From Candidatus Nanohaloarchaea archaeon (GTDB taxonomy: Archaea; Nanohalarchaeota; Nanosalinia; Nanosalinales; Nanosalinaceae), in assembly GCA_041640075.1 (NCBI GenBank), contig JBEQAY010000001.1, positions 14,845-57,946 of the forward strand: a stretch of 43,102 nt of DNA. The letters are read 5' to 3'. Position 1 is the stretch's first letter. Each line of letters opens with the position of its first letter. Below are positions 27,023-43,102 of the stretch, in pieces. The notes beneath the pieces are model-generated. The model was given only the letters and a program-made list of their open reading frames with translations, ran no database searches and was not told where the DNA came from. Position numbers and translations under genes: made by a program.

Positions 27023-27103
27023 AAGCCATGTAAAACATGGCTTCGGCATGATGAAATTCGAAACTCAAAGAGTTTCTGCTTTCACAGAAAATCTAAGATT
27101 TTC
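27023..27103. repeat. Cluster of three short perfect hairpins downstream of tRNA-Ser
   Basis: AAGCCATGT-aaa-ACATGGCTT 27023-27043; GAAACTC-aaa-GAGTTTC 27060-27076; GAAAATC-taa-GATTTTC 27087-27103. Confidence 0.85.
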
Positions 27104-27125
27104 GAGAACTTTGTCACAGAAGTTT

Positions 27126-27211
27126 CGCCGAGGCTGGGATTTGAACCCAGGAGGGCAGTGACGCCCACCACCTTTCCAGGGTGGCACCTTTAGCCACTCA
27201 GTCACCTCGGC
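27126..27211 (-). tRNA. tRNA-Ser(GGA); no intron, CCA not encoded
   Basis: GCCGAGG/CCTCGGC acceptor stem; CCACC-CTGGAAA-GGTGG anticodon arm; long variable arm; GGTTCAAATCC T-arm; G discriminator. Confidence 0.97.
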
Positions 27212-27267
27212 AAATAGCATATTTGCTTGAGGTCGAGAAAACTCGTTCGAGTTTTCGACCCTCGGCA
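27205..27267. repeat. Double-hairpin insert flanked by the 8-bp direct repeat CCTCGGCA (tRNA 5' end)
   Basis: Repeat copies at 27205-27212 and 27260-27267; hairpins at 27210-27226 and 27237-27256. Confidence 0.75.
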
Positions 27268-31702: not shown

Positions 31703-32053
31703 CTAAATCATGTTCTTGAGGAGTTCATCCATGTTTGGACGTTTTCCAAGTGCTCCTCCATTATTGTAGTTTTTCTTCGTGCTTCTGAATCCGCCTGAAG
31801 GTGGTGTCATTGAAAGCTTTACACCAGGCTCGATCTTGACATCTTTTGAACCTGCAACTTCTTCAACTACGTCGTCGGAAACTTCTCCGTATGCGATGTA
31901 GTCTTTGGCTTTGTTCAGCATTCCTTTTATTGCTTCGTCATCGTCTTCAACGAAGAGTACCTGGTTCTTCTTTGTAAGTCCAAGTGATTCAAGTGTTGCT
32001 GAGATCTTTTCGGAAGCATCTACGTCTCCTCTAACCTTTACTACTGCAATCAC
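31703..32053 (-). CDS. rpl30: 50S ribosomal protein uL30
   Basis: IAVVKVRG, GMLNKAKDYIAYGE and PPSGGF...GGALG motifs; operon position. Confidence 0.95.
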   Translation of the reverse strand: MIAVVKVRGDVDASEKISATLESLGLTKKNQVLFVEDDDEAIKGMLNKAKDYIAYGEVSDDVVEEVAGSKDVKIEPGVKLSMTPPSGGFRSTKKNYNNGGALGKRPNMDELLKNMI

Positions 32054-32112
32054 TCGAAAACACCTCTTGTGTTTTCTGCGTGATCAAGAAAATCTTTGAT
32101 TTTCGTAATCAT
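32048..32112 (-). repeat. Double-hairpin cassette and 20-aa uORF upstream of rpl30
   Basis: Hairpins at 32056-32076 and 32088-32104; TGATT duplicated 59 bp apart; uORF 32112-32050 MITKIKDFLDHAENTRGVFE. Confidence 0.8.
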
Positions 32113-37950: not shown

Positions 37951-37976
37951 TATCTTGGTTCACCTCTAAACAAACT

Positions 37977-38089
37977 TCTCCGCCAGAACTTCAAAGGGAA
38001 TAGACTATGCACTCTACAAAAGTGATTTTTCCATTCACCCCCGAAAGTATCGGTCGCCCGACTTCCAGCGGAAATGACACTCGCGTGTC
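37977..38089 (-). ncRNA. Candidate structured 5' leader RNA of rps17 and the downstream operon
   Basis: Two GCGA-tetraloop hairpins, a 12-bp closing stem and a long interrupted hairpin, folded by eye; G-U pairs work only on the minus strand. Confidence 0.65.
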
Positions 38090-38112
38090 GTAACATCAAA
38101 AGACAAACTAAA

Positions 38113-38122
38113 CCTTAAAAAG
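38113..38122 (-). promoter_or_regulatory. TATA box (TTTTTAAG) for an internal promoter upstream of the rps17 leader
   Basis: About 25 nt upstream of the first leader hairpin. Confidence 0.55.
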
Positions 38123-38142
38123 GGTGTTAATGAAAAAGGTCT

Positions 38143-38473: not shown

Positions 38474-38998
38474 TCAGTTCCATTCGTTTTCTAGGATTCC
38501 GTACATGTAGAGGTCTTCGTGTTTTCCTTCGTGGTATGCCTGTTCACGTAGTTCTGCTTCTTTCTCAAAGCCGAGTTTCTCCCATATGCTCTGCGATGCT
38601 TCGTTAGTTCCCAGGGCTCTTGCGACAACTTTGTGGACCCGGAGTTCCCTGAAGGCATAGTCTATCATCAGTTCTGATGCTTCTGTTCCGTAGCCGTTTC
38701 CGTGGTGTTCCGGATGTATCCAGAGGCCGAGCTGTTTGACTCCTTGTTCTTTTTCCGGTGAAAGGCTGATCATCCCTATCATTTCTTCTTCGTGGGAGAT
38801 CGCCAGGTTCACTTCTTCGTCACCGCAGATGACCTGTTCAAAAAATTCTCTTTCCTGTTCAAGGTTTGCAGGTTTTGAATGGGAAATATTTGTCCTGATA
38901 TTGGTCAGGTTGTAGGTGTCACGGATGAATTCGATGTCTTCTTCCTCTACAGTTCTGAGGTTGATCTTCTCTCCTTCAAGGAAAACTGCTCCTGGCAT
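38474..38998 (-). CDS. GNAT family N-acetyltransferase (RimJ/RimL type)
   Basis: LGLWIHPEHHGNGYGTEA, NEASxxxWEKLGF and YGILxxEW motifs. Confidence 0.92.
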   Translation of the reverse strand: MPGAVFLEGEKINLRTVEEEDIEFIRDTYNLTNIRTNISHSKPANLEQEREFFEQVICGDEEVNLAISHEEEMIGMISLSPEKEQGVKQLGLWIHPEHHGNGYGTEASELMIDYAFRELRVHKVVARALGTNEASQSIWEKLGFEKEAELREQAYHEGKHEDLYMYGILENEWN

Positions 38999-39613: not shown

Positions 39614-40681
39614 TTAACCTTCAACTCTGGTTTCAAGCCAGTCTGTGAAGGTTGTACGGTTTTTGTCGTTTTCTTCTGCTTCGAGAAGTGCCTCGTAGTC
39701 CGGATTATCCAGATCTTCTATTGCGTCTTTAGCATCGCTGATTGTTCCGGATACAATTTCCTCGTACTCTGCCTCTGCTCCTTCACTTTCTTCAGCTTGT
39801 TCTGTATCCTCTACAGGAGGTTCTTCATCAGCTTTGGATTCGTCTTCCTGTTCTTCCTCTGGTTCTTCACTTACTGCTTCTTCTTCGTCTTCAGTTTCTT
39901 CTTTGGATTCGAAGGCGTCTCTTACTTCGTCTACCTCGATGTCTGAGGTTTCGATTGTTTCTCCTCTTTCTTCAATTGCTCTTTCGATTTCACCTGAAGT
40001 CATGTTGTCTGCTTCTTCTATGACGTCTTCAATCCTGGTTGATTTCTCTGCTGCGTCTTCGTCAACCTGTGTCTCGTGGAAGATTTCCTTTTGTACGTCT
40101 TCGATCTTTCTGTGCTGGAACTCTGGAAGTGAGTCCATGATTCGGACTTTGACTCCGATTGCTCCAGGCTTTGTACGTGCAAGTTCGTATGCCTTTGAGA
40201 CGTTGTCTTTTGATGTGTTTCCACATCTCTTTACGTATCCGAATGAGAATTTTTCTGTTCGTCCACGGTTTCCGGAGAGCTTTCCTGTGATCTCTACTTC
40301 TGCTCCGATTACTCCTGCTTCCTTCATTCTGCGGATGTAAGTGTATCCTACTCTTTTGGCGTGACCGCCTTTTTGAAGCCAGTCGGCGATGCTTTTTGCA
40401 ACGACTTTTGCGTTGGCGTCTCCTTCCTCGATCTCGTTGACCTCGATCTGAGGGTTTTCAAGATCGAATGCTTCTTCCATGTCTTCTGTTAGTTCGTTGA
40501 TACGTGATCCTCCACGTCCGATGACCAGTCCTGGTCTCTGTGCGTGGATCACTACTTTTGTGCTTGTAGGTGTACGCACGATATCTGAGTGGCTGTAGCC
40601 TGCTCCTTCAAGTTCCTCTTCTAGGAACTCGTCAAGTCTTACCTTGCGTGCGCCTTTCTGTATGAATTGTTTTTCTTTCAT
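39614..40681 (-). CDS. rps3: 30S ribosomal protein uS3 with a long acidic C-terminal extension
   Basis: RPGLVIGRGG KH motif, GAEVEITGKL and GAIGVKVRIM; then ~165 extra residues. Confidence 0.96.
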   Translation of the reverse strand: MKEKQFIQKGARKVRLDEFLEEELEGAGYSHSDIVRTPTSTKVVIHAQRPGLVIGRGGSRINELTEDMEEAFDLENPQIEVNEIEEGDANAKVVAKSIADWLQKGGHAKRVGYTYIRRMKEAGVIGAEVEITGKLSGNRGRTEKFSFGYVKRCGNTSKDNVSKAYELARTKPGAIGVKVRIMDSLPEFQHRKIEDVQKEIFHETQVDEDAAEKSTRIEDVIEEADNMTSGEIERAIEERGETIETSDIEVDEVRDAFESKEETEDEEEAVSEEPEEEQEDESKADEEPPVEDTEQAEESEGAEAEYEEIVSGTISDAKDAIEDLDNPDYEALLEAEENDKNRTTFTDWLETRVEG

Positions 40682-42200: not shown

Positions 42201-42470
42201 TTAAATCATTCCAAGCTCGGTCGCAACATCCATTGCGTCGTCGCTTGGACCTAGTTTTACGTATGCTTTTTTCTCGTTCTGTGGAGTAATCGATGTGTTT
42301 ACTTTTTTAACCGTCACATCAAACAAGAGTTCGACTGCGTCAGCCACCTGATTCTTGTTTGAATCGATGTCGACCTTGAGAACAATCTTGTTCTCCTCGT
42401 CGACCATATCCATTGCCTGCTCTGTGATGTGAGGGTTTTCAATCAGTTCAAGTGCTTTCTGTTCATTCAT
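42201..42470 (-). CDS. rpl23: 50S ribosomal protein uL23
   Basis: PHITEQAM, VKKVNT and KKAYVKL motifs. Confidence 0.96.
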   Translation of the reverse strand: MNEQKALELIENPHITEQAMDMVDEENKIVLKVDIDSNKNQVADAVELLFDVTVKKVNTSITPQNEKKAYVKLGPSDDAMDVATELGMI

Positions 42471-42529
42471 TTTTACGAAAACACCTCAAGTGTTTTCTTG
42501 TAAAACCGAAAATCTTTGATTTTCATTTT
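42466..42529 (-). repeat. Double-hairpin cassette and 17-aa uORF upstream of rpl23
   Basis: Hairpins at 42477-42497 and 42508-42524; AAAATGAA duplicated 56 bp apart; uORF 42526-42473 MKIKDFRFYKKTLEVFS. Confidence 0.8.
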
Positions 42530-42535
42530 GATCAC

Positions 42536-43102
42536 CTAGTGGAAGAGCTCCTCGTCTTCAAGTCTTTCAAGTGCTTTTTCTGTCCAGACGACAAGTCTCC
42601 CTGGCTTTGCTCCCGGCGCCAGCTTCTCTGCGTTAAGCTGGTCGACTACTGAAACTTCTACACCTTGAAGGTTGGAAGCTGCCTGTTTGACGCCGTTATC
42701 TTCTGCAACTACTACCAGAGGACCGACTTTTCTAACGTACTTTCGTCCTCTGTTAGCTCCTCTACCTGATCGGACTTTCTTTTCGCTGACTCTTTCAAGT
42801 TCATCTTCAAGTCCAAGATCTTCGAGCTCTGCCTTCAGTTCCTGTGTCTTCTCGATGTCTGCAAATCCTTCTGTGGTTAGCGGTAGGTCGCCCTCGTAAT
42901 CATGTTTTTTGCTTACAAGTTCTTCGTCAGAAGTAGCTGAGATTGCTGATCTGATCGCTTTTCTTCTTTCCTTCCTGTTGATGTCTTCTGAGAAGTCTTT
43001 CTCTGCTTTCGGTGGGTGAGCTCTTCGTCCTCCAACCGTGTTTGGAGATTCTGCTCCAACCCAGTAGAACTGTTCTCCACGGGCCAGAAGTGCTTTCCTT
43101 GG
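42536..43102 (-). CDS. rpl4: 50S ribosomal protein uL4, partial (5' end outside the window; absent from the ORF track)
   Basis: Frame reads PRKALLARGEQFYWVGAESPNTVGGRRAHPPK...LAPG...PGRL to a TAG at 42536-42538. Confidence 0.95.
   Translation of the reverse strand, partial: PRKALLARGEQFYWVGAESPNTVGGRRAHPPKAEKDFSEDINRKERRKAIRSAISATSDEELVSKKHDYEGDLPLTTEGFADIEKTQELKAELEDLGLEDELERVSEKKVRSGRGANRGRKYVRKVGPLVVVAEDNGVKQAASNLQGVEVSVVDQLNAEKLAPGAKPGRLVVWTEKALERLEDEELFH

Follow-up and report, generated by a model that had tools for sequence, protein, structure and literature searches.

A Two-Hairpin Cassette Between rpl4 and rpl23

The S10-spc ribosomal protein operon of a nanohaloarchaeon (Candidatus Nanohaloarchaea archaeon, contig JBEQAY010000001.1) lies on the minus strand of the 43,102-nt stretch of DNA analyzed here, which we call the window and which belongs to a 980-kb assembly in 58 contigs (genome G000). 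We focused on a short cassette between rpl4 and rpl23, composed of two hairpins and a small upstream open reading frame (uORF). A preliminary description of this DNA had reported the cassette as a second copy of one found in front of rpl30, and the features that it gave for the rpl23 copy are all present in the sequence, coordinates and the uORF stop 2 nt before the ATG included. The locus comprises the following parts, where SD stands for Shine-Dalgarno:

42536..42538, minus strand: stop codon TAG of rpl4 (likewise Pfam-identified, L4), 9 nt upstream of the cassette uORF start
42532..42537, minus strand: original SD-like word AGGTGA, retained in the empty allele and now preceding the uORF
42529-42522, minus strand: first AAAATGAA copy
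42508..42524, minus strand: hairpin 1, GAAAATC-AAA-GATTTTC, where GAAAATC-N3-GATTTTC is the family signature
42498..42507, minus strand: spacer; predicted pairing joins its TTTTAC (42505-42500) to the tail GTAAAA
42477..42497, minus strand: hairpin 2, GAAAACAC-TTGAG-GTGTTTTC
42487-42482, minus strand: inner SD-like word GAGGTG of hairpin 2, 11 nt from the rpl23 ATG and mostly paired in the predicted ensemble
42471..42476, minus strand: tail GTAAAA, containing the uORF stop TAA (42475-42473)
42473-42466, minus strand: second AAAATGAA copy
42473..42526, minus strand: bridging uORF of 17 codons, MKIKDFRFYKKTLEVFS and a stop, the latter 2 nt upstream of the rpl23 ATG
42201..42470, minus strand: rpl23 (Pfam PF00276), ATG at 42470
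42466..42521, minus strand: the 56 nt missing from the empty allele L113, with a placement that is ambiguous inside the AAAATGAA repeat

The 17-mer that forms hairpin 1 has four near matches in the window (at most two mismatches), where 0.32 would be expected and none of 100 shuffles reaches four, and its exact form is present in six copies in genome G000. A pattern search of the window confirmed that hairpin 1 is identical in the rpl23 and rpl30 copies. The other copies in the window lie at rpl30 and at a tRNA gene:

32050..32112, minus strand: second cassette with its uORF (MITKIKDFLDHAENTRGVFE and a stop), 2 nt past the rps5 stop and with an overlap of 4 nt at the rpl30 GTG; empty alleles lack 59 nt
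31703..32053, minus strand: rpl30 (Pfam PF00327)
27237..27256, minus strand: family-type hairpin upstream of tRNA-Ser(GGA)
27125..27212, minus strand: tRNA-Ser(GGA)
27060..27103, minus strand: two-hairpin copy devoid of SD and uORF, in the tRNA-Ser(GGA) trailer

At both rpl23 and rpl30, folding predicts the two hairpins together with an extension of hairpin 2 by pairing of the spacer with the tail (TTTTAC with GTAAAA at rpl23, GATCAC with GTGATT at rpl30), so that the spacer is constrained rather than free. The predicted stability of the rpl23 cassette is unexceptional (z −1.3, 22 of 200 shuffles being equally good), and that of the rpl30 cassette unusually high (z −3.4), with the rpl30 start codon and the inner SD predicted to be paired. 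Apart from tRNAs, the window gave no Rfam match above the gathering score.

The Cassette Is a Polymorphic Insertion

The gap between rpl4 and rpl23 is at most 18 nt in 26 of 30 genome loci, and reaches 65-128 nt in G000, G002, G010 and G015; G002 starts with the same insert as G000 and reads N in its 3′ part, and is therefore counted as filled only. Among metagenome loci, none of the 21 that include the junction carries the cassette (one further locus does not include it). A 56-bp deletion had been proposed to restore the junction, and a natural allele does exactly this: L113, with 96% protein identity, aligns to the locus with a clean gap of 56 nt, and such a gap is seen against four close relatives. 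The contigs of sequencing runs X2, X3 and X4 skip 55 nt at this place (the intervening letters of X3 and X4 are not known), and because these other empty alleles are 55 nt shorter, the 8-bp AAAATGAA repeat is not certainly a target duplication. At the rpl30 locus, X2 and X3 skip 59 nt, 5 letters of which fit either side. In the metagenome runs, the strains that lack the cassette at rpl23 or rpl30 are 94-99% alike to the filled ones. Between rpl4 and rpl23, G010 and G015 carry inserts whose sequences are unlike that of the G000 insert; insertion at this junction has thus probably happened more than once. We thus found presence or absence, and not gradual divergence, across genome loci, runs and relatives: the rpl23 cassette is a true, polymorphic insertion.

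An assembly artefact, which the preliminary description had itself named as a way to be wrong, could be suspected in an assembly of 58 contigs. This explanation is refuted, and its probability is negligible, since run X4, which comes from an independent study, also bridges a variant cassette at rpl4-rpl23 and single-contig genomes carry many copies (30 in G010, 24 in G021 and 15 in G024). Run X1 carries the filled rpl23 allele unchanged in an identical contig, and may be the source of the assembly.

A Dispersed and Probably Mobile Repeat Family

The exact 17-mer occurs in 30 of the 41 genomes of the order, and its reversed control in none. A covariance model (R1) built from 41 copies finds matches in 31 of the 41 relatives and in 53 of 70 Nanohaloarchaeota genomes, with 0-41 copies per genome, some 550 matches in all, and numbers that vary within genera; no match was found in the near-complete genomes G019, G020, G023 and G046. 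Of 25 pattern matches in GTDB, 24 belong to records with the title Nanohaloarchaea, Nanohalobium, Nanosalina, Asbonarchaeaceae or uncultured archaeon; the single bacterial match has no open reading frame (ORF) behind it. A virus search gave two pattern matches, neither convincing as a cassette. A literature search that covered neither supplements nor subscription journals found no published description of the archaeal element.

Across 21 operons the cassettes are sporadic, being found before the genes for L23, L2, S19, L22, S3, SUI1, L14, L24, L5, S14, L32e and L30. When the 288 orthologous junctions of G000 and G001 are compared, 19 show a length difference of at least 30 nt with a short junction in one of the two genomes; by eye, 15 of the 19 differences are cassette-like (3 weakly), and they run in both directions. 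Most targets are core genes, such as those for L10, L13, L21e, L24e, L1, L30, the exosome, topoisomerase VI, ScpB and PheT; ATP synthase, eIF5A, RadA, SufBD and DnaJ are also among them. From its ATGA to the GTGA, the rpl30 copy is identical at 62 of 63 nt to copies that precede rpl1 in two other species, and nearly so at a third locus, while the rpl1 gene of G000 itself has no cassette. Such identity at non-homologous loci argues for copying between loci and between species, and suggests that the repeat is likely mobile.

The preliminary description had taken conserved stems with free spacers as a sign of modular palindromic units or of selection on structure. The palindromic stems do covary, with 90.4% of cells paired against 86.2% in shuffled alignments and six pairs that change on both sides, in a set of copies that were picked for their hairpins and are related to each other. 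The other half of the claim has to be revised, given that spacers are constrained and recur as whole sub-families across loci. The stems are AT-rich. The outer arms, GAAAA and TTTTC, complement each other, but are short and lie within the element rather than at its ends.

An Open Frame Bridges the Cassette to the Next Start Codon

Our set of 47 two-hairpin cassettes was chosen for an SD-like word within hairpin 2 followed by the start of a gene, and a uORF was not required; one member, inside a tRNA-Trp intron, was dropped. An ATG or GTG is found at most 9 nt before hairpin 1 in 44 of the remaining 46, and in 40 of the 46 the frame stays open up to a stop within −4 to +2 nt of the gene start (13 at −4, 18 at −1, 5 at 0, 3 at +1 and 1 at +2). 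By comparison, the other two frames do so in 2 of 88 cases and head-tail chimeras in 723 of 2070 (35%). In 42 of 44 cassettes the end of an upstream ORF lies at −4 to +18 nt from the uORF start. Nineteen further matches of the model, which include three repeats of training sequences and one match scored on the opposite strand, comprise 17 with a gene start, 12 of which bridge. The cassette thus carries an open frame leading from the old SD-ATG to a stop that touches the gene start, and a second SD-like word in hairpin 2. SD-like words had been expected specifically in inserts that precede a gene; this is partly confirmed, since by eye they are present in 13 of 15 junction cassettes chosen with no SD filter, compared with 7 of 26 hairpins linked to tRNAs.

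The bridging uORFs use all three frames (23, 9 and 8 cases), and KIKDF, RKSKIF and ENQRF all occur. It follows that the KIKDF peptide is incidental, and that the shared KIKDF and terminal VF, to which the preliminary description had given weight, are by-products of the DNA. For the same reason a conserved peptide was rejected, neither peptide nor codons being conserved, as was a fixed frameshift switch, since the frame of the uORF relative to the gene varies. The main constraint on the cassettes is an open frame that ends at the next start codon; the preliminary description had noted neither this constraint nor the tRNA-linked copies.

An adaptive regulatory leader, whose hairpins and uORF would tune or gate the translation of housekeeping genes and which would be recruited or lost junction by junction, could account for the prevalence of core genes among the targets, for the predicted pairing of the inner SD and of the rpl30 start codon, and for junctions that are hit in several lineages. 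It is hard to reconcile with the absence of the cassette from strains 94-99% alike and from the four near-complete genomes named above, with a peptide and codons that are not conserved, and with copies adjoining tRNAs that have neither SD nor ORF, and we hold it to be unlikely.

Here and below, published systems are compared as they are portrayed in excerpts of the cited sources. In Haloferax volcanii, downstream genes depend on upstream translation (PMC6728339), and reinitiation falls by 60% at an intergenic distance of 13 nt and is lost at about 22-23 nt (PMC10666635). From this distance limit we infer that a bare 56-nt insert would silence rpl23, and that a relay with gaps of 9 and then 2 nt would not. 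Ribosomes that end rpl4 would reinitiate at the uORF ATG 9 nt further on, melt both hairpins, stop 2 nt ahead of rpl23 and reinitiate there, so that the relay would convert a coupling-breaking gap of 65 nt into two short ones, and selection would retain a copy only if its frame ended on the start codon. In the best reading of these sequences, the element would be tolerated through termination-reinitiation, with predicted translation of the uORF, in a manner resembling that proposed for the mycobacterial MIRU repeats discussed below. Taken together, we read the rpl4-rpl23 cassette, with a probability of about 0.75, as an insertion that belongs to a dispersed two-hairpin repeat, likely a mobile one, whose survival at start codons within operons is likely due to its working as a ribosome relay.

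Several points weigh against this reading. The 46 cassettes were preselected for an SD-like word and a start codon, include orthologous copies and are not independent, and by the rule applied 6 of the 46 and 7 of the 19 further matches do not bridge. The stems are almost wholly Watson-Crick (673 Watson-Crick pairs, 5 GU and 3 others, partly by selection), which suits DNA palindromes equally, and the GU-versus-AC bias is too sparse to separate RNA from DNA. The repeated hits at the rpl23, rps3, rpl24 and rpl30 junctions could also result from a regulatory benefit. No target duplication of fixed length was found in 44 cassettes: direct repeats around the two start codons measure 2-15 nt, with a mean of 4.6 nt against 4.1 nt in mismatched pairs. 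Last, the Y1 transposase family (PF01797) is present in 1 of 41 genomes and not in G000, and reverse transcriptase, IS110, TnpB, Cas1, DDE_Tnp_1, DDE_3 and IS240 are each found in at most one of five copy-rich genomes.

Related Hairpins in tRNA Leaders, Trailers, and Introns

Genome G000 contains 45 hairpins with the GAAA-type stem: 14 belong to tRNA loci, 12 precede a gene start, 8 fall in coding sequence and the remaining 11 are elsewhere. The tRNA-linked ones occur in leaders, trailers and introns, the latter in tRNAs for Cys, Leu, Trp, Arg and Lys; there are 14 in G000, 12 in G001 and 1 in the 942 kb of the cassette-free G020. Copies beside tRNAs have no SD and no ORF. An A before and a G after the hairpin, the polarity seen in 31 of 46 cases for hairpin 2, flanks 14 of 25 tRNA-linked hairpins, and behind 4 of the 13 trailer hairpins come 8-20 nt that repeat the tRNA 3′ end. 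The same element might be tolerated at tRNAs because leaders, trailers and introns are cut away. Introns have been reported in 15 of 39 and in 4 of 38 tRNAs of two nanohaloarchaea, in a paper whose excerpt does not mention the element (PMC10266531).

Several individual loci of G000 complete this picture. On contig C13 (3486-3609), the gene that ARAGORN calls tRNA-Glu is a tRNA-Cys(GCA) with a canonical bulge-helix-bulge (BHB) intron that holds the family 17-mer. On C3 (38380-38700), tRNA-Gly(GCC) is flanked by stacked hairpins and by two repeats of its own 3′ end, and the trailer of the G001 tRNA-Gly(GCC) is similar yet different. Two single hairpins on C16 (2291 and 17208), in front of the genes for the E2 component of 2-oxoacid dehydrogenase and for dnaJ, take in the A or AT of the start codon with their 3′ arm, and hairpins that resemble them abut the first base of several tRNAs. 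On C11 (19751-20052), two identical tRNA-His genes are parted by a run of N and may be an assembly duplication.

The presence of family hairpins within tRNA introns raises the idea that the cassette is a BHB intron, or a block bypassed by ribosomes, that is removed at the RNA level and has tRNA introns as its source. No BHB brackets either copy in the window, however, and a scan that does find the tRNA-Cys intron detected BHB motifs in 3 of the 46 cassettes and in 13 of 138 controls; moreover, an insert removed by splicing would have no use for a bridging frame. This makes such an origin highly implausible. We give hardly any credence to the palindrome being a DNA operator to which a transcription factor or a chromatin protein would bind: its inverted repeats are near-perfect, and in G000, where predicted coding sequence makes up 83% of the genome, 37 of the 45 hairpins fall outside it, but the stems vary in sequence and length with compensatory change, the copies lie within operons and tRNA introns rather than at promoters, and the frame constraint is left unexplained.

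How the Element Might Move

Start-codon repeats of at least 7 nt are seen in 7 of 44 cassettes, against about 4% of mismatched pairs. Tyrosine recombinases are present in 15 of 25 genomes, are not found in G000 and do not track copy number, which speaks neither for nor against them. The proteins common to G000 and G001 include 103 with no good match in 942 kb of G020 sequence (the whole genome is about 55 kb longer), and a Pfam scan of 27 candidates revealed no nuclease or recombinase, two further candidates being outside the scan. Candidate mobilisers were rejected as follows: DinB, present in 37 of 70 genomes, was not found in the copy-rich G008, G010, G018, G021 and G054; a PolB-like gene, present in 34 of 70, also occurs in G020, where no cassettes were found; and five proteins of unknown function were not found in all four copy-rich genomes.

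Because no dedicated transposase tracks the element, we propose that it would spread by host repair or replication enzymes that copy it from a donor at a short stretch of matching sequence around the start codon's TG. Such host-enzyme copying is likely, and is the least supported part of the explanation; an enzyme supplied in trans, or a route through RNA, may be the alternative. A far-reaching version of this model would see in the element a transposase-free archaeal parasite that uses host enzymes to home in on the places where translation begins and where tRNAs are processed, jumps between species, owes its invisibility to the ribosome relay and is the source of much of the variation in tRNA introns among nanohaloarchaea. 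As a whole, we regard that version as doubtful.

Conversely, nothing would need to move between loci if each cassette were formed at its own locus, the SD-ATG region being duplicated locally and synthesis proceeding by fold-back or template switching. In agreement with this, the 3′ arm of hairpin 2 at locus L135 is a repeat of 15 nt from the SD-ATG region of that same locus, the G010 insert at secY lies between copies of a 21-nt repeat, and tRNA 3′ ends recur behind the trailer hairpins mentioned above. A fixed 17-mer in 30 of 41 genomes and the 62/63-nt identity between non-homologous loci nevertheless require a template, which largely refutes an in-place origin for the common sub-families and renders it very improbable in general. 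At the secY locus (L042, rpl15-secY junction of the G010 operon), the gap measures 149 nt and the flanking direct repeat covers the SD, the ATG and two codons.

Other Features of the Ribosomal Operons

Before rps17 lies a 192-nt leader (37951-38142, minus strand) with the motif GCTGGAAGTCG...GATACTT, which recurs in 200-280-nt leaders of G017, G019 and G022, and partly in G023 and G024. It has no Rfam match and is a candidate conserved structured RNA. A gene for a GNAT acetyltransferase (38474-38998) lies in the ribosomal operon between those for SUI1 and RNase P p29, and is there in only some relatives. S3 (39614-40681, 355 aa), L24 (36413-37231, 272 aa) and L30 (31703-32053, 116 aa) have long C-terminal extensions past their Pfam domains. 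The L32e-L19e junction of loci L047-L050 (G031, G032, G034 and G035) shows a gap of 170-211 nt that, by eye, seems to contain a small ORF with a cysteine motif, absent from the family of the window.

Relation to Known Systems and Significance

The closest parallel is with mycobacterial interspersed repetitive units (MIRUs). According to a 2025 review, these appear mobile, insert at start codons and carry an inner ORF that is coupled to the gene at −4 nt (PMC12548453); they also show empty and filled sites with 4-bp repeats (PMC3184786). Like them, the present element consists of short units dispersed in operon junctions, with empty and filled sites, an inner ORF that would be coupled to the gene, and a mechanism of spread that is inferred. 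MIRUs measure 40-100 bp, reach tens of copies and are intergenic within operons; here, 55-59 nt are inserted, genomes have 0-41 copies, and 42 of 44 copies follow the end of an upstream ORF. The differences, drawn from descriptions and not from sequence comparison, are that the host is a nanohaloarchaeon rather than a mycobacterium, that an AT-rich two-hairpin build replaces GC-rich inverted repeats, that spacings of −1, −4, 0, +1 and +2 in three frames replace that of −4 (40 of 46 bridge, 13 of them at −4), that no fixed 4-bp repeat is present, and that the element has kin in tRNA introns and flanks and near-identical copies across species. The element would work like a MIRU, yet host, base composition and repeat length place it outside that family.

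The predicted relay matches archaeal termination-reinitiation coupling in its −4 or −1 overlap, in the SD located within the upstream ORF and in the strict limit on distance (PMC6728339, PMC10666635); that coupling was described in archaea other than Nanohaloarchaeota, and the upstream ORF here is a passenger of 15-20 codons on an inserted repeat. Prokaryotic miniature inverted-repeat transposable elements, too, are short, AT-rich and folding, code for no transposase and vary in copy number (PMC10969869, PMC2229807), whereas the present element has no fixed target duplication, a terminal inversion of 4-6 bp only and no partner transposase among the families searched. REP/BIME/REPIN elements are short palindromes in inverted doublets (PMC2817692), to which the flanks C-hairpin-T then A-hairpin-G of the cassette can be compared; unlike in REP/RAYT systems, Y1/RAYT is restricted to 1 of 41 genomes, and copies precede start codons and carry an SD and an ORF.

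These findings would extend the strategy of MIRUs, so far described for mycobacteria, to archaea with a different sequence, and reveal a repeat that thrives, with no known transposase, in streamlined genomes and within their most essential operons. Since cassettes add false start codons before core genes, annotation can be misled. The dozens of natural filled and empty pairs, with their varied frames and stop-start spacings, constitute a test set both for the rules of archaeal reinitiation and for the movement of repeats that have no enzyme of their own, and the link to tRNA introns bears on the origin of new archaeal introns.
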